Positions 10,321 to 61,700 of a DNA stretch of 64,000 nucleotides are shown here, in pieces; position 1 is the first letter of the stretch, and the number at the start of each line of letters is the position of its first letter. The position numbers and the translations under genes are program-made. The notes under the pieces were generated by a model. That model was given only the letters and a program-made list of their open reading frames with translations. It was not told where the DNA came from and ran no database searches. The DNA is from a virus. The stretch covers positions 7,952 through 71,951 of IMG/VR virus record IMGVR_UViG_3300025913_000001, one strand, 5' to 3'.

Positions 10321-10347
10321 TGTTATCTATATTATTTGGTAAATTTA

Positions 10348-10379: not shown

Positions 10380-10382
10380 AAT

Positions 10383-11296: not shown

Positions 11297-11315
11297 TTTA
11301 AAAAGCAAAAACAAA

Positions 11316-11657
11316 ATGGCTGAAAAATATGCGGTATTATACCCAAAAATACTTGATTGTAAAGTAGGAATATTTCTTGCTTGTAATCCAAATATTTCCG
11401 TTGTTATAAAAGATAAAGTAGTTTCAAACTGGGTAAAAAAATGTGTTTACATAAAGATTGGTAAAACATTGGTATAGTCTTTTCAATCGTATGCTCATGT
11501 TGATACACAAAAAGAGATGAATAAAACAGACGACGAGATTATAAAAGACTTTAAGAATCAAATTGTGGATGACTGTTTTAATTTAGTCAACTTCGATAGA
11601 AAACCAATTGAAAATAGGGTATATACAATAAGAAAACTTTTAAAAACAAATAAATAA
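11316..11657 (+). pseudogene. 113-codon frame interrupted by one in-frame TAG (or two short genes)
   Basis: ATG 11316, TAG 11475-11477, same frame continues to TAA 11655-11657, which overlaps the next ATG. Confidence 0.35.
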
Positions 11658-21417: not shown

Positions 21418-21624
21418 ATGAGCATATTTTCACTATTTAAGAAAAAAGTACGTGAGCCGTATAAAAAAGTTGACCTAACTGAAAGTGATTTTATTAAGCG
21501 TCAGGTTATGTTTGTCAAACGAATAAGGTTTGAGAACTCATTGTATGAATTTTCACAAAGCAATATTGTCGCTATCAATCAAATGAAGATAGAGGCTATG
21601 GAAGGGTTCTTTGGATTATGTTAA
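21418..21624 (+). CDS. Hypothetical protein
   Basis: ORF track; overlaps the GT2 start. Confidence 0.5.
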   Translation: MSIFSLFKKKVREPYKKVDLTESDFIKRQVMFVKRIRFENSLYEFSQSNIVAINQMKIEAMEGFFGLC

Positions 21625-23714: not shown

Positions 23715-24679
23715 AGAAAATCATATACATGACCCAATGGGATGACGACGGAACTTATTTCTATCGATTGGCACCCCTTACATTTATTAAACACGAAAAT
23801 ATTACAATTGAAAGGATACCCTATCATGGCAATATTACGTGGTCTACCCTATTGGGATATGATACCTTAATTTTAGAACGCCCATCAGGTCAGCATGACT
23901 TAAACCTTATTAAATTGGCTAAACAATGCGGACTAAAGATTATTACCGATTGGGATGATGATGTTTTACATATTGATGAATATAACCCAATGTACGCGCA
24001 TTATGAAACTGCAAAATCAATTGTTATTGAGTGTTTGCTGTTATCCGATGATGTTTGGGTATCTACTGTTGGATTAAAGAAGTCATTTGGCTTTTATAAT
24101 GGCAATATACGGGTTATACCGAACGCTCATAACGATTACTTGTTTCCTGTAGCCAATAAAAAGCAATTCAATATAGAGAGTAAAAAAGCTATTTGGAGAG
24201 GCGGTCAAAGCCATGAAGCAGATGTGTATGGGGTTGCAGATAGCTTAGTTAAAACTATCAATGACAACACCGATTGGATGTTTCAGTTTGTTGGTGCAAG
24301 ATTTATTTATATGGAGCAGAGATGTGGAAACAACTATCAACCTGTTTCCATGATGCCGTTAATGCAGTATTTCGGGTATTTGTATAAGGAGAACCCCAAT
24401 ATCGTATTTCACCCTTTATCTAATACTAAATTTAACGAGAGTAAAAGCAATATCAGTTTTATTGAGGCTACGTATAGCGGGGGTGTGTTTTTTGGAAACA
24501 CAACCTTACAAGAATTTTCTGGAGTAGGTATAATGCCGTTTGACTATATATCAGAATATGTGGAAAAAGATAGGATATTGGCATTGCAAAAAGCAAATGA
24601 AATAGGGTGGAAACACATAAAAGATAATTTGCTATTATCAAACATTAATCAAAAACGCATAGAAAGGCTATTGGCATGA
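23711..24679 (+). CDS. GT-B fold glycosyltransferase-like protein
   Basis: FYRLAP, DWDDD, VWVST, VIPNA, IWRGGQSHEAD, PLSNTKFNESKSNISFIE. Confidence 0.75.
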   Translation: MKKIIYMTQWDDDGTYFYRLAPLTFIKHENITIERIPYHGNITWSTLLGYDTLILERPSGQHDLNLIKLAKQCGLKIITDWDDDVLHIDEYNPMYAHYETAKSIVIECLLLSDDVWVSTVGLKKSFGFYNGNIRVIPNAHNDYLFPVANKKQFNIESKKAIWRGGQSHEADVYGVADSLVKTINDNTDWMFQFVGARFIYMEQRCGNNYQPVSMMPLMQYFGYLYKENPNIVFHPLSNTKFNESKSNISFIEATYSGGVFFGNTTLQEFSGVGIMPFDYISEYVEKDRILALQKANEIGWKHIKDNLLLSNINQKRIERLLA

Positions 24680-25266
24680 AGTTAATCGGAAATGTATTAG
24701 GGGTAGAATTTGACAAGGCACATAATAAAGTGTTATCAGTTGGACTAAATGGTCTTGATATTATAAGGGCAGATTTATGGATAGCAAGAGAGGACGATGG
24801 ATTTCAGGGTTCTCAATTTTCTGAAAATACCAATTATCTCGAAACACTACCTCAGATATGCACAGTTAAGCACCCAAGTGTCAATCACCCATACAAAGAG
24901 GGTGACAAGCTATTTGTACATTACATGGCTAAAGAGTGTGCCGAACGTGTTGATGACTACGAAGTCATTGATGCGGACTTTATTTTATTTCAAATAATGC
25001 CCGATGAAACGTTTGACATGGTTGATCGAACTTACTTAGGAGAACAAGTGTACACCGAAGAGGAAATAACTCCATCAGGCATCATTGTAAGCGATAGGAA
25101 GAAAGACGGGATGAAAGTAGTGATAACACACGTTCCACGCAGGGCTGCTGTTAAAATAGGTCAAACAGTCATTACCATTGACGATAAGAATTACGAGATA
25201 AACTATAAAGGTAAACGCTATATCAAATTAGTAGAACACGAAATTGTAGGTGTAGTAATCAATTAA
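24676..25266 (+). CDS. GroES-like co-chaperonin (tandem GroES-like folds)
   Basis: EEITPSGIIV mobile-loop-like motif, VKIGQTV, YEINYKGKRY...EHEIVGV; lies ahead of the terminase. Confidence 0.6.
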   Translation: MKLIGNVLGVEFDKAHNKVLSVGLNGLDIIRADLWIAREDDGFQGSQFSENTNYLETLPQICTVKHPSVNHPYKEGDKLFVHYMAKECAERVDDYEVIDADFILFQIMPDETFDMVDRTYLGEQVYTEEEITPSGIIVSDRKKDGMKVVITHVPRRAAVKIGQTVITIDDKNYEINYKGKRYIKLVEHEIVGVVIN

Positions 25267-37452: not shown

Positions 37453-40400
37453 ATGGCACATAACGACAATATTCGGGGTTTTCTAAATACAGGTATGAAT
37501 GGTGACGACGCACCTGAGTACGTATCTCCTGAGGACATCATCGAGGCGTTCAACACTATTTTTACAGGCTCTACAGAAGGCGAAGATGGGAATGCCACCA
37601 ATATCCCATCAAATGACCTTGTACCCTTTACAGTACAAGCAGGGATAAATAAGTGTATAGGTGCTGAAAAGTTTGAATCATTAAGAATAATTATTGGCTT
37701 TATATACAACTCATTCGGGTTTCACCAAATTATTGAATATGCTTACGATACTGACAGCATAAGCATTGTCTTTACGAATAAAACAGATAGCGGCGGTGTT
37801 TCGATACTTGACTTCGATCCATTATACTATGTGACCGATATTAAGATGGTTAACGACACCTTCTTAATATTCAGGGCAGATAATATACCACCTGCTTATA
37901 TTAACTATACAAGGCTAAAAAGTGGCTTTTACGGGGTACTTACTGCCAATGATTTTAGTTTAGCTAAACCACAGAACTTAATTCCCGCCACAAGCGTATA
38001 TAGCGATGATGCAAGCAGGTCTGTTAACCTACTAAACCAAAAGCTGTTTCAATTTATTAGCCAATTTGAGTATATCGATTATGAGTTTTCGGCATGGTCT
38101 ACGAGATCTAAAAGAACCGTACCTATAACTCAAAATACGCCATCAGTAGGAACAAATGTAACTTTAAACAATAATTTAATAGTCAGTATTGATATTGGTG
38201 ATAACCGAGTTAATCAATTAAATATTGGTGCAAGATATAGTGACCTCGATTTCTTCTTGATTAAGACAATTACAAGACAAGAAATAATCGGGCTAACCAA
38301 TACGAGTGTTGATATTTCAAATCAGATATACGAAGCTTATAATCCAACAACCAACATCTATTCATTCGTTTTTTACAATGACGGTCTGTATCCTAATATT
38401 GATATTTTAGAAACCGACCTTTATTATGATGACGTGCCTTTATTGGCAGGAGCAATGGAGTTGGCGAATGGCAACGTAGATACTTGGTGGGACTATACTA
38501 AAGGCTATCCACGTCCTCAAACAGTAGTTAATATTAGTGCAGTAGCTTATAATCCAGGAATAGCTATTACAGCGCCAACATACGATTATTTAAGAAAGAC
38601 ATACGTTGATGGTGGTGGCGTAGGAAGTGGTGCAGGTAATCACAAAAGGACGATGCAAGCCAACTTTTTAGGTTTGCCAAAGCAGGGTGATACTATTACG
38701 TTTTACTTTGTTTCTGCACAGGATAGTAGTCAAACTTTTTCAGTAACTCACTTGGTGGTTTTTGCAGAGCAAGATGATTTGTTATTAACCATGACAAACT
38801 TTGCTGCGCAAATAGCAGGACAGTTTAATACATACGATACAAGTACTGGTGCGAATGCCTCATCTGACCTTCCTACAAGTCCACAGGTTGTCATACGTAT
38901 GGTTGGTCCTCCGTATTATGAGTTACGTGGCGTTAACGTTAACCTATTTAATGCAGGTGCAGGACAATCAAAGTGTATACACGGATTAAAGAGTAATTCA
39001 TCATATCAGGCAGCATTATCTTATTATGATGATAAAGGAAGGTTCTTTCCTTTGGATACCGATAACTCATTTGTGTTTAAAACGCAGTCTTACGCTCAGA
39101 TATTAGGGCAAACACAGGCATTGCAATGGCAGATAACAACCGTATCCGCACCTGCGGGAGCTGTTAGCTATCAGTGGATGTTATCTAAAAATACTACCCA
39201 CCAAACAGATTTATTTATCAATGGGGCATTGATAGTATATAAAGGTACATGGAATGCAACTACAAACTCGCCAACACTTGTTGCAGGAACTGGAAGCGTA
39301 GGGGATGCCTATTTAGTGAATGTTCCCGGTAGCCAAAATTTAGGTAATGGCACAACAAGTTATAATGCTGATGATTTTGTTGTCTATAACGGTTCAACAT
39401 GGGATGTTTCACCCCAGTCTTTTGGTGACTTAACAGATACCTCAGACTATTTAGTGTTTAACATTTCGCCATTAAAGGCATTTAACAAAAAAAACTCATC
39501 TTCAATATTAGCCTACGAGTATTCTGCAGGGGATAGGGTGACTTTCGCATATTTCGCAGTAAGTGGCGGCGGTAATATTTATTTCAATACACCAGTAGTC
39601 GATGTAGAGATTGTTGACTTTAATGTAACCAATTACTTATTAAAAGTTAGAAAACCATCAGCGTTCGTTGTAGCATCACCTAACGTAACTTATAACGGGA
39701 TAAACATTAACGGAACGGACGTTCTTTTAGAGTTATATAGCCCATTAAAAAGGACGGTAGTTACGGATGGTGTGACAACCAATAGCACGCAAACCTATTT
39801 TGAGATAGGAGAACGTTTTCCTATAGTTAATGGCAATCACAGTGTTTTAACAGGGACAATTACGGACGGCGATAATTACTATAAAACAAGAGAGGTTGTA
39901 TCTGCTGTTGACCCCAATAATTTGTTGGAATTAGTGGTTGAAGATTTTAATTTCAGTGATTTTTATATCAGTAATTATACCTCTTACGGTAGAGTAAGAA
40001 CTTATGACGATGTTTTGGAAACGACCACTAAGATAGCTTGTGGTTGTTATTCAGGAGAATTCGTCGTAGGAAGCAAAATAAACAGCCTGACACGTTTTTT
40101 CCCTGCGAGGGTATATGGTGAAGCAGACGGACAAACATCTGCTAACTACGGGGCTGTAAACAAGGTATTTCAGCGAAATAATGAAATAGTACTCATCCAA
40201 CAATTAAAAGTTGGTTATATTCCTGTTTTTGAAAGCATCATTACAGATCAAGCCGAAAGACAAAACGTAGCTATATCAGACAAGATATTTGGTAATATAC
40301 GGTATAACGATAGTGGAAATCATGGTTCTGGTGGTTGGAAGCGTTGTATCGTTATTTATGGTAATAATGTATATGCTCTTGACCCTTTCCGTTCTGAGCC

Positions 40401-41616
40401 ATTTAGAGCGGGTTTAGACGGTGTTCATACCATAAGCGGCAAGATGAGCAAGTTCTTTAAACAAACGCTACAGCAAGCATTTGCTAACGGTATAGAACCT
40501 GTTGCTTACTATGACCCATACAATAACTTTTACGTAATATCTATTCCGACTGATAATGACACTGTAGTAACCTTTAGTTTTGATGCAGCCACATGGCAAT
40601 ATCAGGAAAGCTATGCACCGCCAATTCCATCAGGTATCACTTTAGTGGCATCGCCTGCGCATGGAACAGTTAGTTATAATAGCACTACTGGATTTGCTTT
40701 ATATACACCGAATACTGGCTATGTAGGTACAGATAACTTTACATTTTCGTTTGTAGTTAATACGATTACTATCACTAAAAGGGCGTGTATAAATGTATTA
40801 GCAGGGGGAACTACGATTTATCCTTTTGCATTTACACCGCAAGTTGGGGTAGCTTTAAGCACTACAATTATTTCTAATTCAATATTAGTTGGTGGCAACA
40901 CAATACCTGTGCCAATCAGTATTACCGGGGGGCAGTATTCAATTAATGGAGGTGCCTTTACAAGTGCAACGGGTACTGTTAATCCCGGCGATACAGTAAG
41001 GGTAAATGTTTTAAGTTCGGGGTCAACCAATACAGGAACAAGTTCTACCTTAACGATTAGTACCATATCTGCAACATTTATGGTTACTACTTATTCGTTA
41101 ATCGCTGGTATATTAATTGTGGATATCAATAACGATGCCACAGGTAATTTCTGTGGATATGTGAATACACCGGGAGCAACCATTCCTTATCAAGTACCTG
41201 TATATACTGGTCAAAACTTTATGCCGAGTGTTGCTACGCCACCTGCTGACAATTGGTGCTTGGCATCAGACGTGGTGGGGACTTCAATTGAATGGCGATT
41301 TGAATTTAATATTACTAAGTTAGTGGCAACCTATCCGTCAGAGCCTACCTTTGTGTTTATAATCAGTGGCAGAAGTGTATCTCCGGGTTCATTAAATGGG
41401 TCTTACGTTGTTAAGAGTACCACAGGATCAAGTATGATAATGACAGGCTCACCGGGAACTTATTTACCATCAGCATCTGGGCCAAATATTGGTGTAACCA
41501 CTTATTCAGGAAAGACAACGGTGGGTGGTGCTAATGGAACTTATGGCGTTGGTGTGGGGGCAGTCATAATGACTTTTACGTATAATGTGGCCTTAAATAC
41601 TATAACTTTAACTTAA
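37453..41616 (+). CDS. Tail stabilisation/muzzle protein, N-terminal part, with appended Ig-like domains
   Basis: GMNGDDAPEYVSPEDIIEAFN start typical of P22 gp10-like stabilisation proteins; HGTVSY...YTPNTGYVGTDNFTF Ig-like repeat. Confidence 0.7.
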   Translation: MAHNDNIRGFLNTGMNGDDAPEYVSPEDIIEAFNTIFTGSTEGEDGNATNIPSNDLVPFTVQAGINKCIGAEKFESLRIIIGFIYNSFGFHQIIEYAYDTDSISIVFTNKTDSGGVSILDFDPLYYVTDIKMVNDTFLIFRADNIPPAYINYTRLKSGFYGVLTANDFSLAKPQNLIPATSVYSDDASRSVNLLNQKLFQFISQFEYIDYEFSAWSTRSKRTVPITQNTPSVGTNVTLNNNLIVSIDIGDNRVNQLNIGARYSDLDFFLIKTITRQEIIGLTNTSVDISNQIYEAYNPTTNIYSFVFYNDGLYPNIDILETDLYYDDVPLLAGAMELANGNVDTWWDYTKGYPRPQTVVNISAVAYNPGIAITAPTYDYLRKTYVDGGGVGSGAGNHKRTMQANFLGLPKQGDTITFYFVSAQDSSQTFSVTHLVVFAEQDDLLLTMTNFAAQIAGQFNTYDTSTGANASSDLPTSPQVVIRMVGPPYYELRGVNVNLFNAGAGQSKCIHGLKSNSSYQAALSYYDDKGRFFPLDTDNSFVFKTQSYAQILGQTQALQWQITTVSAPAGAVSYQWMLSKNTTHQTDLFINGALIVYKGTWNATTNSPTLVAGTGSVGDAYLVNVPGSQNLGNGTTSYNADDFVVYNGSTWDVSPQSFGDLTDTSDYLVFNISPLKAFNKKNSSSILAYEYSAGDRVTFAYFAVSGGGNIYFNTPVVDVEIVDFNVTNYLLKVRKPSAFVVASPNVTYNGININGTDVLLELYSPLKRTVVTDGVTTNSTQTYFEIGERFPIVNGNHSVLTGTITDGDNYYKTREVVSAVDPNNLLELVVEDFNFSDFYISNYTSYGRVRTYDDVLETTTKIACGCYSGEFVVGSKINSLTRFFPARVYGEADGQTSANYGAVNKVFQRNNEIVLIQQLKVGYIPVFESIITDQAERQNVAISDKIFGNIRYNDSGNHGSGGWKRCIVIYGNNVYALDPFRSEPFRAGLDGVHTISGKMSKFFKQTLQQAFANGIEPVAYYDPYNNFYVISIPTDNDTVVTFSFDAATWQYQESYAPPIPSGITLVASPAHGTVSYNSTTGFALYTPNTGYVGTDNFTFSFVVNTITITKRACINVLAGGTTIYPFAFTPQVGVALSTTIISNSILVGGNTIPVPISITGGQYSINGGAFTSATGTVNPGDTVRVNVLSSGSTNTGTSSTLTISTISATFMVTTYSLIAGILIVDINNDATGNFCGYVNTPGATIPYQVPVYTGQNFMPSVATPPADNWCLASDVVGTSIEWRFEFNITKLVATYPSEPTFVFIISGRSVSPGSLNGSYVVKSTTGSSMIMTGSPGTYLPSASGPNIGVTTYSGKTTVGGANGTYGVGVGAVIMTFTYNVALNTITLT

Positions 41617-42545
41617 TGTTTATAACGATAGAAAATACACCGATTAGTATTGATCTGACACAGCAAGCCTTGTCGACGGGATGGACTGTTACTGGCAGTA
41701 ATGCCATACACGAATCTTGCAATACAGGTATCATGTACTTAATAGGCTATCCTTTAATAACAGGTCAGACTTATGTATATAGCTATCAAGTAAATAGTAT
41801 TAGCGGCGGCAATGTGCAAGCACGATTGGGCTCCGCTACTGGAACTGCTTATACGACGACAGGATTTAAGACGGAGACTATAGTAGCTGCTGGAACTAAT
41901 CCGGTATTGTCATTTTATTCAAATGCAGATTGTAATATAGACCTGTTAACGTTTCAACAACAGCCTGTAGTTAATACAGTAACCAAGCAACGTCAAACTA
42001 TCGTATATAGTGAAAAAAGTAATAAGTGGGCTTGCTTCTTATCGTTTACTATTGATATTGGAGTGGCCTTGTTCACCAATTTATTTTTGTTTAAAAACGG
42101 GAAAATGTATAAGCATGAACATGGAAGTGGAAGCCGTAATAACTTCTTTGGCGTACAGTACGACTCAATAATTAAATTTGTAGCCAATAAAGATTCTACG
42201 CTTATCAAAACGTTTAATTCTATTGCCATACAGTCTAATCAACTTTTAATTACAACAACAGATGGTATTACTACTTCTTTGGGGAATGTATCTGACTTGG
42301 AAGCAGAAGATTTCTTGAAAATGGAATTAAATGATGGTATCAATACGATAGATGTATATGACGAAGAAGGGATGTATGCGGCATCGTTTTTACGGGATAA
42401 AAATTCAGTAGGTGGGCTAATCAATGGTGCTGTGTTAAAGGGTAATTATTTAATCGTAGAATTAGTAACTACAGATAGTGGTAATCAATTAAGTTTGTAT
42501 AGTGTTTCAGTAAATTCGAGTTTGTCTCATATAGGAGTACGGTAA
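41616..42545 (+). CDS. Tail stabilisation protein, C-terminal part
   Basis: TIVYSEKSNKWACFLSF...FKNGKMYKH...RNNFFGVQY...KTFNSI...EGMYAASFLRD...LKGNY. Confidence 0.65.
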   Translation: MFITIENTPISIDLTQQALSTGWTVTGSNAIHESCNTGIMYLIGYPLITGQTYVYSYQVNSISGGNVQARLGSATGTAYTTTGFKTETIVAAGTNPVLSFYSNADCNIDLLTFQQQPVVNTVTKQRQTIVYSEKSNKWACFLSFTIDIGVALFTNLFLFKNGKMYKHEHGSGSRNNFFGVQYDSIIKFVANKDSTLIKTFNSIAIQSNQLLITTTDGITTSLGNVSDLEAEDFLKMELNDGINTIDVYDEEGMYAASFLRDKNSVGGLINGAVLKGNYLIVELVTTDSGNQLSLYSVSVNSSLSHIGVR

Positions 42546-51325: not shown

Positions 51326-51429
51326 GTTTTTCACAACAAATAAATCTTTGGAGTTTGATTGAAAAGTCAAACCCTTTTTTTATGTTTGTTCCCAATAAGG
51401 AATTTTACCAACTACTAAAAACAAACTTC

Positions 51430-51663
51430 ATGGAAACTTGCAAGCAATGCTCAAAAGAATTTGAGGCATGGGAAGCTGAATTTTATTGCGACAATTGTGA
51501 TAACGACGGATTAGAAGAACGTTGGTACGATTGGTGCATTGGCGAACCTGATATGATTACGTGTACTGAATGTAATGGTGATAAGACAATTAAATCTATG
51601 GAACGTGGTTTTTGTTCCGAAGATTGCAGAGAGGATTACTTTTATCCCAATAACGGTATATGA
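51430..51663 (+). CDS. Cys-rich zinc-finger protein
   Basis: CKQC, CDNC, CTEC, CSEDC. Confidence 0.6.
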   Translation: METCKQCSKEFEAWEAEFYCDNCDNDGLEERWYDWCIGEPDMITCTECNGDKTIKSMERGFCSEDCREDYFYPNNGI

Positions 51664-54173
51664 AGGAATCTCTCAAAAAACTCGTCAAGCAAAAGTACGC
51701 TGAGATAGTAGAGAAGCGTTTAAGCAAATCAGAGGCTTTAGAGGCGCAACAGGCTATTATCTCTCAAATTGATGATACAGTATACCAAGCGGAAGAAGAA
51801 GTAGCTGACGAGCCTGTAATAACGGTATTACCCCGTAACATCAGGTTAGTTAAACAACAGCAAGCAGAGTGCATAGAATGTATCATTGGCGACATTGACA
51901 ATATCCGTGAAACGTTGCCTTATTTGTTGGAGCATCAGGTGGAAGATGTGCAGAAAGCAGAGGAACGGTTGTATGTTCAAGATGAAGCGGGGATACTGTT
52001 TACTAACCAGACTGGAACAGGTAAGACGATCGTAGGTGCAGGGTTGATTAAACGTTCATTAAAACTCTTTCCTAATGAGCCTATACTTATTGTAACACCT
52101 ACCGATAAAAAGTGTAAAGATTGGATATTGGAGTGTTCATACTTGGGTATACGAGTTTATCAATTGCAGGATACAAGGGATGCTGGTAGATTAGTAAGCA
52201 CCACAACCTATGCCAATTTTAGAGAAAACATTCCATTACAATGCCGAAAGTTTCAGTACATTATTTACGATGAGTGCCATAAGATAATGCAGAATGGTTT
52301 GGGCAAAGAAACAAGCGCCTTAGAAGCGCATAGGCGTACCGCTAATCCATCCAATAGCACAAAGGTAGTATTCCTATCAGCAACACCCTTCGCCTACGTA
52401 CAGAACCTTGAATATGCCGATGGCTATTTATTTAAGATGGGCAATCGTGCTAAGTTCTTAATGGATAATTTTGGCTATACTTTATTGGAAGATGGCAAGT
52501 TAATGCAACCCGCTATTGGTGTTGATGTAGGGATATTGGAGCGAGAGTTTGCCGATAGGCTTATTAAGTCAGGGGCTATGAGTACCCGAAAGATTAAGAT
52601 ACCCTTTGACTATTCGAGAGAATTTGTGTTGATGGGCGATACTTTAGGTTTACAAATTGATGAAGGCTATATGCGTATTGGTGATGTGAAGCAATTTCCG
52701 TTCCTATCACAAGCGATTTCAGGTAAGTTTGACTATCGTTATACATCACAGTTATTAGAGTGCATCAAGGCACGACAGGCAGTACCACGTATCAAAGAGC
52801 ATTTGGCATTAGGACGCAAGGTAGTCGTCTTTCATGCCTATAACCACTCCCTACCGTCACACCCTTTTGAAATGAGGGCTGAGAACTTTAAAAACTATCT
52901 CGATGTAAATAAAATTATGCGGGAAGTTTCGCTATTCCATCAACTTTATCCCGAATACGGTAATTTGGATGTGAGGGACTTAAAGAACCCGATAGCAACT
53001 ATGAAAGAAGCTTTCGGCAATAACGTAGTTTTCTTTAATGGAGAAGTTGGTAAGGCTAAACGTAGTAGTGACTTGGACTACTTTAATGCCGATAGTGGTG
53101 TTGATGTGTTTTGCGTACAGGTAGATGCGGGTAAAGAGGGAATAAGCCTCCACGACAAGACTTCTGCTAAACAGAGGGTAACGATCAACCTCATGCTACC
53201 GACAGCGCCTACGACCGCTATACAAGCCGAGGGGCGTATTTATAGAGAGGGGAATAAAACAGATGCGATTATTGAATATCCCGTACTCCATACCGCTTTT
53301 GAGAAGTTTGTGTTTGCGGACAGGATTAGCAAAAGGGTAAGAACGGCTGAGAACTTAGCTTTGGGTAGCCAAGCAAGGAATTTGGAGATCACCTTTAAAG
53401 AGGGGTATTTAAACCCGACAAGTGATAAGCCTCATAAGGGACAAGGTAAGGGTGGTAAGAAAGCGGATATGCTGTTTGACCATCCCGACGAGTTTGAAAA
53501 GGCTAAGACGTTTTACTACAAGCGTGTGGCTAAAAAGGATAATAAGGCTTTAGTGCCTGAACCTTTGGGGTATAAGATTGTTCAATGGCTATCGGCCAGA
53601 CCATGTGATTGCTTATTAGATGCAAATGCAGGAATTGCATCAGTAAGTAGATATTTTAAAGCAAACACCGATAATACTATAATAGAAACCGATATAAAAT
53701 TAAGAAGCCAAGCAAGCATTTATGTCGAAGCGGTTGAAAGGTTGATGTGTGAAGGATTTGAGGAATTACATATTACCAATAAATATCAAGGGATTGTCTT
53801 TTTAAATAGAGAAAATATTGATTTTATGCTTACCAAAGCCATTAAGCATTTAAAACAAACCGGAAGATTAATATTTATAATACCGTTTAAAGACCTGTCG
53901 GATTACTTTTATAAAAACATAAACAGCGTTCTTCGCGCCACAATTATAATCCCATCCTGCGTATTTGGTAGTGAATTTATATTATTTGTAATAGACAAAG
54001 TTTTGGTTAAAGAAATAATTCCATTATTGCCACCGACTGAATATGTTGATTTATCAAGTATTTCAACAATTGATAAGTTCTTTGAAGCAATTAAGGATAT
54101 AACTATTATTGAGAGACTAGTAGAGCCAGATAAAGTCGTTAAAGTAGAAAAGCATTATACTTGGCAATATTAG
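51660..54173 (+). CDS. SF2 helicase (strawberry-notch/DarB-like) with degenerate C-terminal N6-methylase domain
   Basis: QTGTGKT, DECH, LSATPF, AGKEGISLHD, QAEGRIYR; then PEPLGYKIVQW...LLDANAG with no NPPF/Y. Confidence 0.8.
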   Translation: MKESLKKLVKQKYAEIVEKRLSKSEALEAQQAIISQIDDTVYQAEEEVADEPVITVLPRNIRLVKQQQAECIECIIGDIDNIRETLPYLLEHQVEDVQKAEERLYVQDEAGILFTNQTGTGKTIVGAGLIKRSLKLFPNEPILIVTPTDKKCKDWILECSYLGIRVYQLQDTRDAGRLVSTTTYANFRENIPLQCRKFQYIIYDECHKIMQNGLGKETSALEAHRRTANPSNSTKVVFLSATPFAYVQNLEYADGYLFKMGNRAKFLMDNFGYTLLEDGKLMQPAIGVDVGILEREFADRLIKSGAMSTRKIKIPFDYSREFVLMGDTLGLQIDEGYMRIGDVKQFPFLSQAISGKFDYRYTSQLLECIKARQAVPRIKEHLALGRKVVVFHAYNHSLPSHPFEMRAENFKNYLDVNKIMREVSLFHQLYPEYGNLDVRDLKNPIATMKEAFGNNVVFFNGEVGKAKRSSDLDYFNADSGVDVFCVQVDAGKEGISLHDKTSAKQRVTINLMLPTAPTTAIQAEGRIYREGNKTDAIIEYPVLHTAFEKFVFADRISKRVRTAENLALGSQARNLEITFKEGYLNPTSDKPHKGQGKGGKKADMLFDHPDEFEKAKTFYYKRVAKKDNKALVPEPLGYKIVQWLSARPCDCLLDANAGIASVSRYFKANTDNTIIETDIKLRSQASIYVEAVERLMCEGFEELHITNKYQGIVFLNRENIDFMLTKAIKHLKQTGRLIFIIPFKDLSDYFYKNINSVLRATIIIPSCVFGSEFILFVIDKVLVKEIIPLLPPTEYVDLSSISTIDKFFEAIKDITIIERLVEPDKVVKVEKHYTWQY

Positions 54174-54194
54174 TTTGAATGCTTATATTTGGGC

Positions 54195-54305
54195 ATAAGT
54201 AATTGACTTGCCCAAGAGATTGCTTTAACGAAATTAGAATTAGCCTTATTGAAAAGTTACTTGGAGGGCAAGCCTTGTAATGATTCGGTGAGGCTTTTAT
54301 TTTTT
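54195..54305 (+). promoter_or_regulatory. Two-hairpin leader with loop-loop complementarity
   Basis: After TATATTTG (54184-54191); CTTGCCC (54207-54213) complementary to GGGCAAG (54266-54272) in the loop of a terminator-like hairpin. Confidence 0.5.
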
Positions 54306-54315
54306 ATACTAAATA

Positions 54316-54867
54316 ATGAAAAAATGCAAAAAATGCGGGATTGAAAAAGAATATTCGATGTATCAAAAGAACAAAAAAATGGCAGATGGATATTTATCTT
54401 ATTGCAAAAAATGTATGAATAGGGTGGTGTCTAATCCAGAATTTAAAGCATACATGAATAGCTATAGAATTAGATATAAGGATAAAATAAAAGAACGGTA
54501 TAGTATTCGTATGAAAAATGACCCTATATTTAATCTCTCAAAAAAAGTTAGAAGTAGACTTAATACAGCCATGCTAAGAAAATACTCTTATCAATATAGG
54601 AAAAAGAATAAAACAGAAGTAATGCTTGGTATTCCTTTTGCATTATTTAAAATATATATAGAAAGTAAGTTTACAAAGGGAATGAAGTGGGAAAATTTAT
54701 TAAATGGAGAAATACATTTAGACCACAAAATCCCATTGTCATCCGCTAAAACAGAAGAAGAACTTGTTGCATTATGCCATTATACTAATTTACAACCATT
54801 GTGGGCTAAGGATAATATGGCTAAATCAGATAAAATCTTTCCTACTCAAATGATAATGACTATTTGA
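54316..54867 (+). CDS. HNH endonuclease with N-terminal zinc finger
   Basis: KKCKKC...YCKKC; IHLDHKIPLS...HYTNLQPLWAKDNMAKSD. Confidence 0.88.
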   Translation: MKKCKKCGIEKEYSMYQKNKKMADGYLSYCKKCMNRVVSNPEFKAYMNSYRIRYKDKIKERYSIRMKNDPIFNLSKKVRSRLNTAMLRKYSYQYRKKNKTEVMLGIPFALFKIYIESKFTKGMKWENLLNGEIHLDHKIPLSSAKTEEELVALCHYTNLQPLWAKDNMAKSDKIFPTQMIMTI

Positions 54868-54957
54868 GAAAAAAGAAGTAAGTTATAGTTGGAATTACAA
54901 ATAAAGTATATACATTTGAAAGTCCAACAATTCCGTTGGCACAAAAGCTTACCAGCA

Positions 54958-55446
54958 ATGAATAAATTAATCTTAGATGCCTGTTGTGGCAGTCGTATGT
55001 TTTGGTTCGACAAAACAAATCCCCAAGTTCTATTTGCGGATATAAGAACTGAAACCCATACTCTTTGTGATGGTCGACAATTAAATATTGCTCCGGACAT
55101 TGAAATTGACTTTACCCAAATGCCTTTTGAGGATAATACTTTTCAAATTGTGGTTATGGATCCACCTCATATGAAGAAGTTAGGTAAGAATACGTGGATG
55201 GCTCAAAAATATGGCGTGTTACTACCATCGTGGGAAACTGATATCCGTGCGGGGACAAACGAGTGTATGCGAGTACTAAAACCCGGTGGTACGTTTATAT
55301 TCAAATGGAACGAGGCTCAGGTTACTTTAAATCAAGTATTGGCTTGTATCGAATACAAACCTTTATTTGGTCATGTAACAGGTAAACACGGTAAAACTAT
55401 TTGGCTATGCTTTATGAAGGATATTGACCCCATAGTTCCTTGGTAA
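54958..55446 (+). CDS. SAM-dependent (probable DNA adenine) methyltransferase
   Basis: ILDACCGSRMFWFDK, DPPH, ECMRVLKPGG. Confidence 0.85.
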   Translation: MNKLILDACCGSRMFWFDKTNPQVLFADIRTETHTLCDGRQLNIAPDIEIDFTQMPFEDNTFQIVVMDPPHMKKLGKNTWMAQKYGVLLPSWETDIRAGTNECMRVLKPGGTFIFKWNEAQVTLNQVLACIEYKPLFGHVTGKHGKTIWLCFMKDIDPIVPW

Positions 55447-55548: not shown

Positions 55549-55992
55549 ATGGCTTACTCAGGCAATGTCACTCAGGTAGCGGGTGTTTTAACATTTCACG
55601 ATACCTCAACTATATCAGCACCTTTAACATCAAAGGTATTGGTGGTTCAGGATGCCAATGGTACGACTTTAGCCACAATCACGATGGGTTCGCTTACTAC
55701 AGCCACCTACACTATTACAAGCGATCAATGGTTAAACTTTGTGATGACTTTGGTTGATGCTGCCGGAAGTCATATTGTCGACGTGGCCTATTTAAGCGTT
55801 TATTTTTATTGGCAAAGTAAATTAAATCTTACAAAGGCTTTGGGTTGTGGTTGCTATTCTGAAAAGACTTATTGCAAGATAAACCAAGCTAACGAGTTTT
55901 TAGAAACAGCTGAATGGTACGCACCTTTGGTTGGCTATGGCATATTGGCTAATACAAATATAATTGCTGCAAATACCGTTATCAACAGTTAA
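55549..55992 (+). CDS. Virion structural protein (tail hub/fibre-attachment candidate)
   Basis: Beta-rich N half, CGC and helical C half; upstream TATATTTG. Confidence 0.55.
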   Translation: MAYSGNVTQVAGVLTFHDTSTISAPLTSKVLVVQDANGTTLATITMGSLTTATYTITSDQWLNFVMTLVDAAGSHIVDVAYLSVYFYWQSKLNLTKALGCGCYSEKTYCKINQANEFLETAEWYAPLVGYGILANTNIIAANTVINS

Positions 55993-55993: not shown

Positions 55994-56527
55994 ATGGCAA
56001 CACAACAAGACGCACAAAACTTAATATTAGCGGCTCAGTTCCAAGCGGCAAACTTGATTAATTCAAATCGGGTGTTAATGACTATGGGTGGTCAACCTAT
56101 CAATAAAACTAAGATAAACCAATACCGTAGCCTAATCAATGATTTAAGTTATTTGACGTATACCTTAATGGATTTTACATCGGATACGTTTATCAGCATA
56201 TTTGATTGTTTAAGCAACGTTGTAGGACTATCTGGTAGCCCAGATATCAATCCGAACTACCAAGCACCTAACACGACTATCAACGTAATACGAACGGGCT
56301 CACAAGCGATAAATTACAACTATACACAGGCAGATTTGATAGACGCAGGGAGTGGTAACTGGTATTTACCTTTCAACCTTGATGCTAAGTTTATACCATT
56401 ATCTTTAGAGATTAACGGTGTGTCGACAGCATTTACTTTTGATACCACGTTTATTCCATCAAGGGTATACGGATTTGCAAGTAATTCAACTCAAACAATC
56501 GTTCTTACAGTAATCAGTACAACATGA
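55994..56527 (+). CDS. Virion structural protein candidate
   Basis: In operon with the fibre-like gene (ATGA overlap). Confidence 0.55.
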   Translation: MATQQDAQNLILAAQFQAANLINSNRVLMTMGGQPINKTKINQYRSLINDLSYLTYTLMDFTSDTFISIFDCLSNVVGLSGSPDINPNYQAPNTTINVIRTGSQAINYNYTQADLIDAGSGNWYLPFNLDAKFIPLSLEINGVSTAFTFDTTFIPSRVYGFASNSTQTIVLTVISTT

Positions 56528-59442
56528 AGAAATTAATTTATACCCTATTGCTTATTACAGCCTCTGTAAGCCCACTAAAAGCACAATGGTTACAAGTAGG
56601 CAATACCTTACAAAGAACGGCTGACGGTAAGTCATACCGCTTTAGTTTAGGCTCACCAGGATTTGCTTATTGGTATACAAAAGCTCAGATAGATAGTTTA
56701 TTGGGGGGATTAAATTATATTAAAAATCAAAACATCACTAAACAAAGCGGAGGCTTTTCAACAAGCTATGGTCAATTAGATAGTTTAAATATTCAAACTA
56801 ATGCAAGTCCATTAAGAGGTTTTGTTCTTAAACCATGGATTAGTTCTGGGCCAGGAAATAGACTAAGTTTTTATTCTTATGGTAATATTGCTAGTGTTCC
56901 TGTTTATACAGAAGTATTAAGACTAAAAAGCGGAGGAGGAGCTATTGCTATAGCCGGAGCTAATAATGATTCTCCCGGATGGATGACTTATGACTATGAT
57001 TATTCTCATCACCCTAATCTAACTTATTATTTTGGTGGTAAAAATGGAAATGGATATTTAGGTTCTCTTAATGCTGTTATTAATAATTGGGTTACAGGAG
57101 GTACACCTGCTATGCAATGGGATTCTGTAGGTAATGTAACAATATCTCAAGCAAGTAAAACATTTACTATTAATGGCTCGGCTCAGTACAACATAGCTAA
57201 AAATATAGGAGTTTTAGGTTTTTTATATAAGCAGAAGGCCGATAGTTTATATGCTCCAAAGGCATCCGGTTTAGGGTATGTACCATATTCAGGTTCTACA
57301 ACTGATGTAGATTTAGTTACAAATGGACATGGTTTATATGCAGAATTTGCAGAAGTTGGTCATAGTTCTAGTAGCGGCTCTGGAATTGATGCAGCATTAT
57401 TTTATAATAATGCCGCTACGGGTACTGGTATAGGAATACAAGCAGGTGATGCTACACATTATGCTCTATCAATAGAACCATATAATCTAGGAGGTGTTAA
57501 AGCTTCTATCTATGGTGATGGTCATGCTGTTTTTAATAGTTCTATTACAGCAGCATCATTTATAAAGGCAGGGGGTACTTCCTCTCAGTATTTAATGGCA
57601 GATGGGAGCGTATCCACTGGTGGCGGTACGGTTACTGGTGGGGTTATTAATTGGCCTGGTACTATATATTCAACACCAACAACAGCAACAGTAGTAAGCG
57701 GTAATTTAACTTTTGCACCAACATTAACAAGTCAAACTACAAATACTTTTTTAGCTGCACCAAATGGTAGTTCAGGTTATCCTTCTTTTAGGTCTATTGT
57801 TGGTGCTGATATACCTACTCTTAATCAAAACACGACAGGTAATGCAGCCACAGCTACGGCTTTACAAACTGGTAGAACTATTAACGGAATTACATTCGAT
57901 GGTACTTCAAATATTACTTTACCTACTATTACTAACACTTTAAGTCAGCAAACTTCTGCAAATTTCAATATTGATGGTAGTGGAACTGCCGCACAATTTA
58001 ATGTAATTAGTCCGGCGGGTACTCCCTCATCTGGTATAGCATTAGGTTCATCAGTAGCAAATAAATTATCAGTAAAAGGCATAAGTGGATTTGGTGTTAA
58101 TCTAGATATGACTGCTTTAACTGCCACAAGAAATGTAACTGTTCAGAATAAAGCATATACTATAGCAGGAACTACTGATAATATTAGTGAGTTTACTAAT
58201 GATGCTGGATATTTAACATCATCTACTGGAGTTTCATCATTTAATACACGTGTAGGTGCAGTAATTCCTGTTGCCGGAGATTACGCCTCTTTAACCGAAA
58301 CATTGACCAATAAAACTATTTCTGGTAGTTCAAATACATTATCAAATATAGCAAACGCAGCATTAACAAACAGCGCAATAACCATTAACGGAGTATCTAC
58401 GTCTTTAGGTGGCTCTTATACCGCTAATAATTTAACAGCTACAGATGCAACATTAACTTTTTCGGGTTCTTATAATGGAAGCACAGCAAGAACAGTAGGC
58501 GTTAATTTAGCTAATAATTTTTTATGGACAGGAACGCATACCATAGGTGGTATTACGCAAAGTGCAGGAACATGGTATACCAGTAATGCCGTATCAGGTG
58601 AAATGTTAAAGAGCAACACAACTAATAACAGAACATCATTAGCTTTGGTTCCGAATGGTACTTCAAATATAGCAGATACGTGGTGGTTTACTTCAAGTGA
58701 TGTGAATACCAACTATTCCGCTTTAGTAGTTGGATACGAAACAGGTTCTTCATCGTGGGGATGGAACTCCGCATCTGCCGGAACTGGTACACCAAAGGCA
58801 ATCTATTTCAATGCGACTAACGGTCAAAGCAAAGCCACAGCAAATGTGGTTATCAATACAGATGGTACGACATCTTTTGGCAATACACTCAAAACTGTAG
58901 CAGGAACATCGTCGTTAGCCCCTGTTAATTTCGCTACAGGAGCAGATAAAACTACGGGTTTAACAAGTGGTGATATGTGGTATACTGCACCAACATTTAA
59001 ATATTATAATGGTTCAGGAACAAGAATATTTGTGACTGCCAATAATGCAGCAGCAGGAAATGGTCAAATACCTATAGGCAATGGTACAGATTTCACGATT
59101 GCTAATCTTACAGCAGGATCAGGTATTAATATAACCAATGCATCTGGTAGCATTACCGTCGCAGCCAGTGTATCACATACTATTTTTACTCCGGCTACAG
59201 GAGGAACTGTAAATTTGGTTAATAATCAATATAATATCGTCAATCCAAGTGGTGCATTAGCTACATTAACCGTTAATTTTCCTTCAAGCCCCGCAAATAA
59301 CGATAGGGTAGAAATAAAATTTACGCAAGCAATTACAGCCATAACCTATAGTAACGGTACTGTTGTGGATGGAATAACAGCCCCAACAGCTGGCGGCTAT
59401 TATAAATATACCTATGATTCAGGAACAACCTCTTGGTATTAA
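56524..59442 (+). CDS. Tail-fibre-like protein with N-terminal Sec signal peptide
   Basis: MKKLIYTLLLITASVSPLKA|Q; fibre motifs GGTSSQYLMADGS, GNAATATALQTGRTINGITFDGTSNI, ISEFTNDAGYLT, VSSFNTRVGAV, ETLTNKTISG. Confidence 0.8.
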   Translation: MKKLIYTLLLITASVSPLKAQWLQVGNTLQRTADGKSYRFSLGSPGFAYWYTKAQIDSLLGGLNYIKNQNITKQSGGFSTSYGQLDSLNIQTNASPLRGFVLKPWISSGPGNRLSFYSYGNIASVPVYTEVLRLKSGGGAIAIAGANNDSPGWMTYDYDYSHHPNLTYYFGGKNGNGYLGSLNAVINNWVTGGTPAMQWDSVGNVTISQASKTFTINGSAQYNIAKNIGVLGFLYKQKADSLYAPKASGLGYVPYSGSTTDVDLVTNGHGLYAEFAEVGHSSSSGSGIDAALFYNNAATGTGIGIQAGDATHYALSIEPYNLGGVKASIYGDGHAVFNSSITAASFIKAGGTSSQYLMADGSVSTGGGTVTGGVINWPGTIYSTPTTATVVSGNLTFAPTLTSQTTNTFLAAPNGSSGYPSFRSIVGADIPTLNQNTTGNAATATALQTGRTINGITFDGTSNITLPTITNTLSQQTSANFNIDGSGTAAQFNVISPAGTPSSGIALGSSVANKLSVKGISGFGVNLDMTALTATRNVTVQNKAYTIAGTTDNISEFTNDAGYLTSSTGVSSFNTRVGAVIPVAGDYASLTETLTNKTISGSSNTLSNIANAALTNSAITINGVSTSLGGSYTANNLTATDATLTFSGSYNGSTARTVGVNLANNFLWTGTHTIGGITQSAGTWYTSNAVSGEMLKSNTTNNRTSLALVPNGTSNIADTWWFTSSDVNTNYSALVVGYETGSSSWGWNSASAGTGTPKAIYFNATNGQSKATANVVINTDGTTSFGNTLKTVAGTSSLAPVNFATGADKTTGLTSGDMWYTAPTFKYYNGSGTRIFVTANNAAAGNGQIPIGNGTDFTIANLTAGSGINITNASGSITVAASVSHTIFTPATGGTVNLVNNQYNIVNPSGALATLTVNFPSSPANNDRVEIKFTQAITAITYSNGTVVDGITAPTAGGYYKYTYDSGTTSWY

Positions 59443-59449
59443 AATCGCT

Positions 59450-59833
59450 ATGAAAAACATCATCATAACCGCCCTAATATTAGCAGCTTCTATTTCGGCA
59501 AAAGCACAAACACTCGATACGGCTTTCTTATCAGCGCATCAAATCAGGACAGCTAAAATAAAACCGTTAAAGATAGATATTTTTGATACAGACAGCATTA
59601 CGCATATTGGGTATGCAAATATCTGTTCGGATGGCGTTACTCATTTTGATATTAATATCATCTTTTGTAACGACAATGCATCCATCTTGAAAACCTATCC
59701 TTTAATTGTGAAAGGTGCTGATTTTGCAACATTACAATCCAGTATTCAGGCTACAGGAGGGTTTTTAGCGGTACTTACTTATTATTCAAATAACTATCTA
59801 ACTACACCAACCAAGCAAATCATCTTTAAATAA
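59450..59833 (+). CDS. Secreted protein, possible fibre chaperone/partner
   Basis: MKNIIITALILAASISAKA|Q; directly after the fibre-like gene. Confidence 0.7.
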   Translation: MKNIIITALILAASISAKAQTLDTAFLSAHQIRTAKIKPLKIDIFDTDSITHIGYANICSDGVTHFDINIIFCNDNASILKTYPLIVKGADFATLQSSIQATGGFLAVLTYYSNNYLTTPTKQIIFK

Positions 59834-59899: not shown

Positions 59900-60004
59900 A
59901 TGAAAAATTACAACAAATTACCAGACCCAATTGAACCAGACGACAACAACCCACCAGTTCAACCGCCTACAGGGCCACCACCTACACAAACACAACATGA
60001 ATAA
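59900..60004 (+). CDS. Proline-rich 34-aa peptide
   Basis: Manual translation MKNYNKLPDPIEPDDNNPPVQPPTGPPPTQTQHE; A-rich upstream; overlaps the next ATG. Confidence 0.5.
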   Translation: MKNYNKLPDPIEPDDNNPPVQPPTGPPPTQTQHE

Positions 60005-60374
60005 CAGATTGCTTATACCATTGGCTATTGAGTTGCATTGCATATCCCTATTGGTTTATTATGGGGATATGCAATTACATCCCAATGATTATTTAAAATT
60101 TGGATGGGCTACTTATTTCCACGCCTGCCAGGTTTTATTTCTTGCATTGTTTTGTATTTGTTTCGCTTTAATAAATAAAAAATCAATGTTTGATAATCAA
60201 TTCCTAATGGTAGAAGCATTTATGAGTATTTCTCTGGGCATTGTGTATTCATTACAAGGATTGGGTTTTAAGCTTCATTCATTTGGTTTGATTGTTGTAG
60301 TTATCGCTATAACAATCGCCACTGGAAGTATTATATTTAGCGAAATTAGACATGGACTTTTTAAAACAGAATAA
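59997..60374 (+). CDS. Four-TM membrane protein
   Basis: Four hydrophobic segments; likely start MNNRLL. Confidence 0.65.
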   Translation: MNNRLLIPLAIELHCISLLVYYGDMQLHPNDYLKFGWATYFHACQVLFLALFCICFALINKKSMFDNQFLMVEAFMSISLGIVYSLQGLGFKLHSFGLIVVVIAITIATGSIIFSEIRHGLFKTE

Positions 60375-60663
60375 CAACGTGGCTACACAACCAATCCCAC
60401 CTGAATTAGATATGACAAAAATTATTGAATGGTTTGTCGGATCAGTTACTTTCCTTATTGGTTTTTTTAAAATCGTAGATTCTTACTTTGCTCACAAGAA
60501 AAGGGACAAGCAAGAGTTTATTGAGCGCGTAGTACGAGCGACTATGGATAGTTGCTTGGCTGATATCAAATCTGAACTACATGAGTTTAAGAAAGAGACA
60601 GCCGCATCAATGGAAAAATTTAATGGGACTGTGTTGGATATCTATAGAGAGGTTAGGAAATGA
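60352..60663 (+). CDS. Single-TM coiled-coil protein (holin/antiholin-like)
   Basis: WFVGSVTFLIGFF segment then charged helix. Confidence 0.55.
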   Translation: MDFLKQNNNVATQPIPPELDMTKIIEWFVGSVTFLIGFFKIVDSYFAHKKRDKQEFIERVVRATMDSCLADIKSELHEFKKETAASMEKFNGTVLDIYREVRK

Positions 60664-60869
60664 CCGAGGTATTAAGCCAATACGGGCTTGCTGGCGCAGT
60701 TATTATTGCTTTGGCTGGTTATGTACTTATGATAGAGAAAAGACACCGTGAAGAGCGTGATGAGTGGCGTAAGAGTATCGATAGGCAGAATGATGAGAGT
60801 AATCGGATTACACGGGAAAACACCAATATATTGTCAGCTTTAAAATCAATGTTAGAAAATAGAAGATGA
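60660..60869 (+). CDS. BhlA-like holin candidate
   Basis: LSQYGLAGAVIIALAGYVL then coiled coil. Confidence 0.55.
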   Translation: MTEVLSQYGLAGAVIIALAGYVLMIEKRHREERDEWRKSIDRQNDESNRITRENTNILSALKSMLENRR

Positions 60870-61153
60870 TTACATCAGAAATTATATCGCAACTTTTATT
60901 TTGGAGTATTGTGATTTTTAGCGGCGTTATTGCATACGAATTCTATCGGAGTAAGGATGGCCGGTTGCGTATTTTAATAATTGAATTGTTCTTGGCTAAG
61001 ATGTGGTGTTATGGCGTTGCAGGAACTTATTACCTCTTGTGGGACTTACATCATGTGAGTAGCGATAATGCCTTGTGGCTACGCATAGTATGTAATTTAC
61101 CTATGTTTATAGTGATGCTTAGGTTGTATCAGTTTATTAGAGTTAAGAAATAG
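60866..61153 (+). CDS. Three-TM membrane protein
   Basis: Three hydrophobic segments directly upstream of the endolysin. Confidence 0.6.
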   Translation: MITSEIISQLLFWSIVIFSGVIAYEFYRSKDGRLRILIIELFLAKMWCYGVAGTYYLLWDLHHVSSDNALWLRIVCNLPMFIVMLRLYQFIRVKK

Positions 61154-61157: not shown

Positions 61158-61700
61158 ATGGCGGACTTTCAGATAGCAAATAAAATTACTGGTGGTAATG
61201 AGGGTGGCTATAGTTTCGATAAAAACGATAGGGGTTTAGAAACGTTTGCTGGCGTATCACGTAGGTTTTGGCCTAATTGGCATGGGTGGTCTATGATAGA
61301 TGCTTACAAACGTGCGCATGGGCTGACCAATATTGATTCATTATTGAAAGATAATTTAATGCGCCAATATATAGACGACTTCTATAAACAAAACTTTTGG
61401 GACGTAAACAAGTTAGACCAAATTAACGATCAGCAATTGGCTAATTCGGTGTATGACTTTGGTGTGAATGCGGGAACTGGAACAGCGGCTAAAATGCTTC
61501 AATCTGCGGCAGGTGTAACAGTAGATGGCATCATTGGTTCAGGTACACTGGCTGCGGTCAACAGCGGTAATCCTAAGGCTATCTACGGCGGTATTAATGA
61601 GCAACGTATCGCTTACTATACCCACTTAGCTACTAAGCCGGGACAAGCACAGTTCTTAAAATCGTGGCTTTCACGAATTAAACCTTATAAACAATCATAA
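61158..61700 (+). CDS. Endolysin, glycoside hydrolase family 108 with peptidoglycan-binding C-terminus
   Basis: EGGYSFDKNDRGLETFAGV, YDFGVNAG, VDGIIGSGTL, FLKSWLSR. Confidence 0.92.
   Translation: MADFQIANKITGGNEGGYSFDKNDRGLETFAGVSRRFWPNWHGWSMIDAYKRAHGLTNIDSLLKDNLMRQYIDDFYKQNFWDVNKLDQINDQQLANSVYDFGVNAGTGTAAKMLQSAAGVTVDGIIGSGTLAAVNSGNPKAIYGGINEQRIAYYTHLATKPGQAQFLKSWLSRIKPYKQS

Follow-up and report, generated by a model that had tools for sequence, protein, structure and literature searches.

According to the textbook, tailed phages are assembled wholly within the cytoplasm, and the locus described here raises the question of why a gene with the build of a phage tail fiber should encode a leader for export. 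The locus lies in a 64,000-nucleotide stretch of viral DNA—the window—that covers bases 7952–71951 of the 71,951-bp record IMGVR_UViG_3300025913_000001 of the IMG/VR database, and its principal gene, the fiber gene, encodes a protein of 972 amino acids (aa). The record, listed as complete by its source, carries direct terminal repeats of 127 bp and represents a complete phage genome. The large terminase (TerL) is about 26% identical to the terminases of 87 cultured Flavobacterium, Cellulophaga, Tenacibaculum, and Maribacter phages, and a 309-aa protein at 41616–42545 matches the crAss-virus muzzle C-terminal domain (PF25729, 3.5e-10); these relationships place the host in the Bacteroidota. The answer favored here, to which a probability of about 0.5 is assigned, is that the protein is the phage's mosaic receptor-binding tail fiber, synthesized as a precursor whose Sec signal peptide is of the host type, and that it would be exported, cleaved before Gln21, matured in the periplasm, and docked through residues 21–60 once a holin opens the inner membrane.

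The fiber open reading frame (ORF) begins at 56524 with MKKLIYTLLLITASVSPLKA/QW. As an earlier note on this DNA had claimed, a signal peptide is present at this start, namely a leader of the Bacteroidota Sec/signal-peptidase-I type with its predicted boundary at Ala20|Gln21. An n-region consisting of MKK is followed by the hydrophobic core LIYTLLLITASV—whose best eight-residue Kyte–Doolittle mean is 2.77—and by leucine at −3, alanine at −1, and glutamine (Q21) at +1. The ATG overlaps the stop codon of the upstream gene (ATGA), and the only other in-frame ATG, GTG, or TTG triplets among the first 120 codons are two TTGs, one within the hydrophobic core (codon 9) and one beyond the conserved module that follows the leader (codon 60). 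A true start downstream of the hydrophobic segment, the objection foreseen when the leader was proposed, is unavailable because neither of these two codons is usable as such. When one fixed leader rule was applied to the whole genome, three of the 126 ATG-initiated ORFs of at least 60 aa passed, the fiber and two small early ORFs; no other particle protein of the genome did so.

The leader recurs throughout a family of proteins. In all six proteins found with fiber residues 1–340 as query, the N-terminus consists of MKK followed by a hydrophobic stretch and then [A/G]-Q. A 70-position profile (A2), comprising the window and two further loci, was run over 1.84 billion cluster representatives at E ≤0.001 and matched 111 representatives, clustered at 50% identity, 95 of which carry a module of ~40 aa at the N-terminus; the remaining 16 match internally only, through the common fiber motif YTK.Q.D. 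P0131, considered as a leaderless protein with an internal module, was rejected since it matches only through the repeated motif NLG..YTK.Q.D. The expectation that homologues keep the signal peptide was borne out: 80 of the 95 representatives combine a positively charged n-region, an uncharged hydrophobic core, a small residue at −3, and [AGSC]-Q at the predicted cleavage site. Eight have a positive and hydrophobic N-terminus without the Q (seven proteins of 256–339 aa with a longer, span-like segment, and one doubtful match), and seven depart in other ways: in four the start of the leader is cut short yet AQ or GQ is kept, one is a partial sequence without an N-terminal methionine, in one a canonical core is preceded by a long extension, and in one (P0159) the core is missing altogether. 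Family leaders are 15–25 residues long (median 19), with A (52), G (22), S (5), or C (1) at −1 and S (28), A (23), V (15), L (5), T (4), C (2), G (2), or F (1) at −3.

At the level of primary sequence the leader drifts, mean pairwise identity in a 39-sequence alignment being 31.8% in the leader columns versus 53.0% in the module columns. Its physico-chemistry is retained: no charged residue occurs in the 14 core columns of 38 of the 39 aligned relatives, these columns are 74% AVLIMFWC, columns 1–3 are 86.6% identical across the 39 relatives, and 80 of 83 sequences are devoid of K or R at +1 to +5. Because the physico-chemistry is kept while the sequence drifts and the mature end is conserved, the segment looks like a working signal peptide rather than a docking helix. 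The predominance of Q at +1 (80/95) fits the Q-rule of the Bacteroidetes, for which a mean Q-value of 71% over 334 species is given by Bochtler et al. (2018, PMC5837995). The signal peptidase I substrates that follow the Q-rule in that survey share the layout of n-, h-, and c-region, the small residues at −1 and −3, and the Gln at +1 with the fiber; those substrates are cellular envelope proteins, whereas here a phage fiber gene in a complete phage genome is concerned, for which cleavage and pyroglutamate formation are predictions. The leader is not due to chance, and its conserved features support the view that the fiber N-terminus behaves as a real, selected Bacteroidota signal peptide of the Sec/signal-peptidase-I type, from which we infer export and cleavage. 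The module following it is, judging by the genomes sampled, not a common cellular protein in the family of the Mucilaginibacter metagenome-assembled genome (MAG) whose 57.9-kb contig holds the nearest locus in the genome collection, because a true module match was found in this MAG alone among 201 genomes of that family. The other three of the four matches in these genomes, at 26–28 bits on an ORF of 778 or 779 aa, were rejected: in the one examined, L013, nothing but the leader of an unrelated secreted protein is matched, and the same presumably applies to the other two.

Judged by its sequence, the protein has the mosaic build of receptor-binding proteins, because the N-terminal module (residues 21–60) is conserved and the distal parts are exchanged among relatives. 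Residues 1–60 and 863–972 are common to P0019 (72% and 65% identity), residues ~70–250 to P0002 (78% identity), and the C-terminal 110 aa are shared with P0019 only; other proteins related through the N-terminus carry SGNH esterase or beta-helix bodies on the same leader and module. A word-indexed search gave 687 fiber homologues, nearly all of them through one repeat (residues 419–480) that is 56% identical to three repeats in the enterobacterial phage tail protein P0006 (PF03406/PF12571). The earlier description of the protein as made of fiber motifs holds for this repeat, which resembles PF03406 tail proteins, but is not echoed by Pfam, PHROGs, or NCBIfam, in which the fiber has no match. 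A tblastn search with the fiber and with the 177-aa protein encoded directly upstream found no match in 50,697 phage records. Structure prediction with AlphaFold2 (AF2) yielded a poor model of the whole fiber (mean predicted local distance difference test, pLDDT, 45), usable for residues 1–66 and the C-terminal domain only. It places a helix at residues 2–18 (block pLDDT 85 and 68), a hairpin at 37–51, and a helix at 53–69, with block pLDDT of 76–83 over residues 31–60 and of 55–86 in the all-beta C-terminal domain. Foldseek returned no match for the model in the PDB at E ≤0.001; the best fold matches of the C-terminal domain are weak, namely the phage Mu fiber–chaperone complex 6o38 (E 1.6e-3) and CBA120 TSP4. 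The collection representative P0001, from a 71,945-bp contig, differs from the window fiber in having C instead of W at residue 50, inside the conserved module.

In the proposed mechanism, the host Sec system would export the fiber, signal peptidase I would cut after Ala20, and the new N-terminal Gln21 would probably be cyclized. Trimerization would take place in the periplasm, where the few O-glycosylation sequons, above all D57-S58-L59, could receive the host O-glycan. Residues 21–60, and not the leader, would constitute the part that docks on the particle, and docking would have to wait for the holin to open the inner membrane or for cell lysis. A holin step, joining cytoplasm and periplasm, is needed because the endolysin of the phage has no leader. 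Support for a fiber that is exported yet located on the virion comes, indirectly and by analogy, from Cellulophaga phage phi18:3 (NC_021794, Pachyviridae), a cultured phage of distant relationship, which has TerL, the portal, and three particle proteins in common with the window. Its fiber or spike proteins gp085, gp086, and gp087 (547–785 aa) each start with a Bacteroidota-type leader with Q at +1, are encoded directly before small membrane proteins and a PG_binding_3 endolysin, and are called structural or tail proteins in the record, with the remark "annotation based on experimental MS/MS proteomics analysis" (MS/MS, tandem mass spectrometry). Three leader-bearing genes are found there, in contrast to one fiber here; no published comment on the phi18:3 leaders was found. 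An exported fiber of similar design is known from Bdellovibrio bacteriovorus, whose mosaic adhesive trimer (MAT) fibers are described by Caulton et al. (2024, PMC10769870) as Sec-exported, phage-fiber-like trimers in which a conserved domain immediately follows the signal peptide and the distal parts are mosaic and variable. The MAT fibers differ in being encoded by chromosomal genes of a predatory bacterium and displayed by the cell rather than a virus; their conserved domain is ~130 aa long and beta-rich and many of them carry an S74 chaperone, whereas the window fiber has a 40-aa module and no S74. More tentative than the reading of this one gene is the wider proposal that Bacteroidota tailed phages may possess an extracytoplasmic assembly branch, composed of Sec export, trimming by the host signal peptidase, a pyroglutamate cap, a possible O-glycan at D57-S58-L59, and docking through the module after the holin has acted.

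Several points weigh against an exported virion fiber. To our knowledge, no tailed phage adds an exported part to its particle. The three phi18:3 proteins have no detectable similarity to the fiber or to its N-terminal module and are positional analogues only, and their detection by MS/MS could reflect co-purified envelope material. Ordinary N-termini are found in the two coding sequences annotated as tail fiber in Flavobacterium phage elemoE (gp50 and gp41), and ordinary cytoplasmic ones in crAss001 gp22–gp26. According to Bayfield et al. (2023, PMC10172136), residues 1–26 of the crAss001 fiber sit in a docking hub of two small proteins, so that the view of the N-terminus as a docking element stays alive. 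Within the family, P0159 (1376 aa) has the module without any hydrophobic core, and P0132, P0134, P0147, P0154, P0161, P0180, and P0207 (256–339 aa) have a longer, membrane-span-like segment before the module and no A/G-Q site; from their sequences, these seven short members may be anchored rather than cleaved. The profile that delimits the family included the leader, and a leader alone gives 26–28 bits on an unrelated secreted protein, so that near-threshold matches may have been helped by it. Finally, at 4.1 sequons per 1000 aa the fiber does not stand out from the other 53 ORFs of the phage that were tested, which have 0 to 7.3 per 1000 aa save for the 127-aa protein encoded after the fiber (15.7) and a 113-aa ORF (26.5).

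The last point makes glycosylation the weak part of the reading. The sequons listed in the earlier note were found as claimed, DSL57, DSL86, DSV200, and DSL240 in the first ~250 aa of the fiber and DTA23 and DSI48 in the 127-aa protein, but a raised density did not emerge: the whole fiber has four sequons where 3.26 are expected (shuffle p 0.40), which puts it level with other proteins of the phage, an outcome that the earlier note had named as refuting, and the 127-aa protein two where 0.71 are expected (p 0.15). Within the fiber, all four fall in residues 22–250 (0.44 expected; p 0.0003 in 20,000 shuffles of a segment chosen post hoc) and none in residues 251–972 (2.84 expected). Conservation among homologues, which the earlier note had proposed to check, applies to one site only, D57-S58-L59: of the 75 family members with a locatable motif, 68 have a sequon there. 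From residue 71 to the end the family shows no enrichment, with 251 sequons against 237.7 expected. For leaderless fiber proteins the corresponding figures are 482 and 519.1. In the 16 mostly leaderless proteins that contain the same motif, 36 of 119 copies are sequons, a comparison that is not clean, because a single orthologous position is weighed against numerous paralogous repeats and because DSL was already part of the profile. The conservation of D57-S58-L59 could also be explained by structure, because the site lies within a common fiber motif. If the fiber is exported in a host with a general O-glycosylation system, its sequons would, by analogy, likely be used, because motif sites in non-cytoplasmic Bacteroidota proteins are "generally nearly fully substituted" and glycosylation also occurs at engineered motifs, as stated in PMC12871550.

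The alternative that survives best holds that the fiber-like protein is exported but is not a component of the particle. Together with the 127-aa protein it would act on the envelope or the vesicles of the infected cell, in receptor masking or binding, in superinfection exclusion, or as a decoy that would prevent progeny from adhering to debris, and the particle would use another, unrecognized receptor-binding protein. The leader, as an argument for an extracytoplasmic location, speaks for this view too, as do the receptor-modifying enzyme domains of some relatives (SGNH esterase, beta-helix), two further small secreted or lipoprotein ORFs in the early region of the phage, and a 1387-aa particle protein with weak carbohydrate-binding and immunoglobulin (Ig) matches. 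In the Mucilaginibacter-MAG contig (L004), a large leaderless beta-helix protein that could be the virion spike is encoded beside two leader-bearing fiber genes, and secreted phage proteins encoded beside receptor-binding genes are known, e.g., T5 Llp and lambda Lom. We nevertheless consider this alternative unlikely, for the fiber is the only ORF in the genome with a recognizable fiber repeat, its gene stands at the end of the particle genes, directly before the lysis genes, and is translationally coupled to a co-conserved upstream gene, and the combination of a conserved N-terminal module with swapped distal parts is the build of a virion fiber. The leader-bearing analogues of phi18:3 are, moreover, annotated as found in particles. 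Nor is there an element that would bring the fiber to the cell surface: no C-terminal sorting domain of the type IX secretion system (TIGR04183/TIGR04131 type) was matched in NCBIfam at E ≤0.1 in the fiber or the 127-aa protein, and a lipobox is absent from the fiber, which has no Cys anywhere, and from the 127-aa protein, which has Q rather than Cys at +1.

A second alternative, which seems improbable, denies that the hydrophobic N-terminus is an export signal and regards it as a docking or assembly element that is retained on a fiber assembled in the cytoplasm, for instance as three helices buried in the tail hub or as a transient membrane tether at the cytoplasmic face. It can draw on the confident AF2 helix at residues 2–18 and on the seven short family members in which the hydrophobic stretch is longer and the A/G-Q site missing, but a docking element should keep its sequence, and it is the leader that drifts and the module that does not. 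Moreover, 80 of 95 representatives pair a positive n-region with Q at +1 and small residues at −3 and −1, features of a signal peptidase substrate for which docking offers no rationale. The positive-inside rule is established knowledge, and applied to the MKK start it would put the rest of the protein outside the cytoplasm. The crAss001 precedent can likewise be read both ways. The window phage has crAss-like tail parts, as the muzzle-domain match indicates, and the fiber genes stand just before the lysis genes in both phages; in the crAss001 study the fiber is held by its N-terminal residues in the hub (THA2/THB), whereas gp22 itself has no hydrophobic leader of the kind found here. The idea that the leader is a product of chance or an annotation artifact, with a wrong start or a functionless hydrophobic N-terminus, is close to refuted: chance hydrophobic N-termini do occur, and a crude leader scan gave many spurious ORFs, but the fiber has no alternative start, its ATGA coupling to the upstream gene recurs in the 71-kb viral contig L002, and the feature is kept in 80–88 of the 95 representatives.

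Table 1. Coordinates of the fiber gene, its parts, and its neighbors in the window
Feature	Position	Strand	Basis
Putative tail fiber precursor, 972 aa, mosaic	56524..59442	+	ORF; module sharing; position before lysis genes
Signal peptide, residues 1–20: MKK, hydrophobic core, PLKA; predicted cut before Q21	56524..56583	+	Sequence and family conservation; cleavage predicted
Conserved N-terminal module of the mature fiber, residues 21–60 (..VGNTLQR..YRF.LG.PGF..YTK.Q.DSL), including sequon D57-S58-L59	56584..56703	+	Alignments A1, A2, A4
One tail-fiber repeat, residues 419–480	57778..57963	+	56% identity to three repeats of P0006
C-terminal beta domain, residues 863–972, candidate receptor-binding tip	59110..59442	+	65% identity to P0019 C-terminus; all-beta model
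Small, putatively secreted orphan ("partner"), 127 aa; leader residues 1–20 (SAKA), predicted cut before Q21; two Cys	59450..59833	+	Sequence
147-aa protein without leader, co-conserved upstream of the fiber; conserved GCGC-type motif	55549..55992	+	Same position in L002 and L004; no family match
177-aa protein without leader, co-conserved directly upstream; stop codon overlaps fiber ATG	55994..56527	+	Alignment A3
Four small membrane-protein ORFs (holin-type candidates)	59931..61153	+	Hydrophobic segments; one matches phrog_9829; before endolysin
Endolysin without leader (GH108 + PG_binding_3), N-terminus MADFQ..	61158..61700	+	Pfam 4.6e-18 and 4.3e-12; phrog_315 3.6e-33

The gene after the fiber is listed from an ATG at 59414. 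A second ATG at 59450 gives MKNIIITALILAASISAKA/QT and the 127-aa protein, which from this start passes the fixed leader rule; reading from 59414 merely lengthens the n-region of the leader. The signal peptide ending in SAKA|Q that had been ascribed to this gene is present from the second ATG. Its supposed role as partner of the fiber fared less well: the protein has no relative besides itself and no family match in Pfam, PHROGs, or NCBIfam, and as an orphan it is not a conserved partner. Its nearest Atlas clusters, ~120-aa hypothetical proteins of Bacteroidota at a score of 0.90, are uninformative. T5 Llp and lambda Lom/Bor are secreted exclusion or moron proteins encoded beside receptor-binding genes; the 127-aa protein resembles them in being small, in having a signal peptide, and in its place directly after a receptor-binding gene, and differs from them in lacking a lipobox and any sequence relative. 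It is most likely a lineage-specific envelope factor, with a predicted role in exclusion or receptor masking, or a periplasmic helper.

The order large protein, 147-aa protein, 177-aa protein, leader-bearing fiber, small membrane protein, and lysis genes is common to the window and L002 and is partly kept in L004. Across these three loci the C-terminal ~65 aa of the 177-aa protein are as conserved as the fiber module, and a Cys-x-Cys motif (GCGC, NCGC, or GCSC) is conserved in the 147-aa family. The docking hubs of the crAss001 fiber contain disulfide bonds, according to PMC10172136. The 177-aa and 147-aa families were considered as counterparts of the crAss001 hub protein gp38 and rejected at an hhalign probability below 1%. 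In L004 the order is changed by a second leader-bearing fiber gene and a beta-helix protein without a leader. The former, at 7314–8579 of L004, encodes a fiber-like protein of 421 aa with a leader ending in FG followed by Q and a different N-terminus; the latter, at 9326–12121, comes after it and encodes a beta-helix-like protein of more than 930 aa. Scans of IMG/VR and of metagenomes with alignment A1 gave one locus each, both on the same 71,233-bp contig, and L004 was the one real locus in the genome scan. L005 from the latter scan, which lies in a polysaccharide locus and has no matching ORF, was rejected, and L006 is a 12-residue match.

The window as a whole contains replication genes, the large terminase, the portal, and a long row of particle proteins, followed by the fiber and 127-aa genes, the four small membrane proteins, and the GH108/PG_binding_3 endolysin. 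Upstream of the 309-aa protein with the muzzle-domain match (37453–42545 for the two together), the 1387-aa particle protein is close in size to the crAss001 muzzle protein gp44 (1371 aa). Its carbohydrate-binding and Ig matches, to CBM_5_12 and Big_9, are weak, and otherwise it matched only 60 aa within minor tail proteins of Gordonia phages. A cluster immediately before the packaging genes (21618–25266) comprises two glycosyltransferase-like genes and one each of the 2OG-Fe(II) oxygenase-like, methyltransferase-like, and GroES-like types. A block of four genes at 51355–55446, between the 113-aa and 147-aa genes, is absent at that place in the syntenic L002; it comprises an HNH-like 102-aa ORF, an 837-aa helicase, an endonuclease VII-like protein, and a DNA methyltransferase, the helicase matching the middle of very long PHROG families (phrog_10691, 7.9e-194). 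Two small ORFs of the early region, both on the minus strand and without a Pfam match, encode an 85-aa product with a leader ending in SAKA and Q at +1 (7891–8148) and a 70-aa product with a lipobox-like LLASC (7438–7650).

No description of leader-bearing tail fibers of tailed phages was found in the literature at the level of titles and the beginnings of abstracts, or in the available parts of PMC6199706, PMC5723332, and PMC8143477, the first of which, in that part, takes the lack of signal peptides as an argument for phage origin. The window contributes a family delimited by its N-terminal module, for which counts are given and which numbers at least 95 sequence clusters, as well as an example in which the density of sequons is not elevated. 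Cellulophaga baltica with phage phi18:3 offers a cultured system in which the question can be tested directly. If the fiber is indeed exported and joined to the virion, annotation habits would need to change, since signal peptides are often read as evidence against phage origin. A late, post-holin assembly step would be required in these phages, and host Sec, signal peptidase I, glutaminyl cyclase, and the O-glycosylation machinery would become host factors for phage infectivity. The fibers could then carry host-type glycans, which would be relevant to receptor recognition and to the evasion of immunity and defense.

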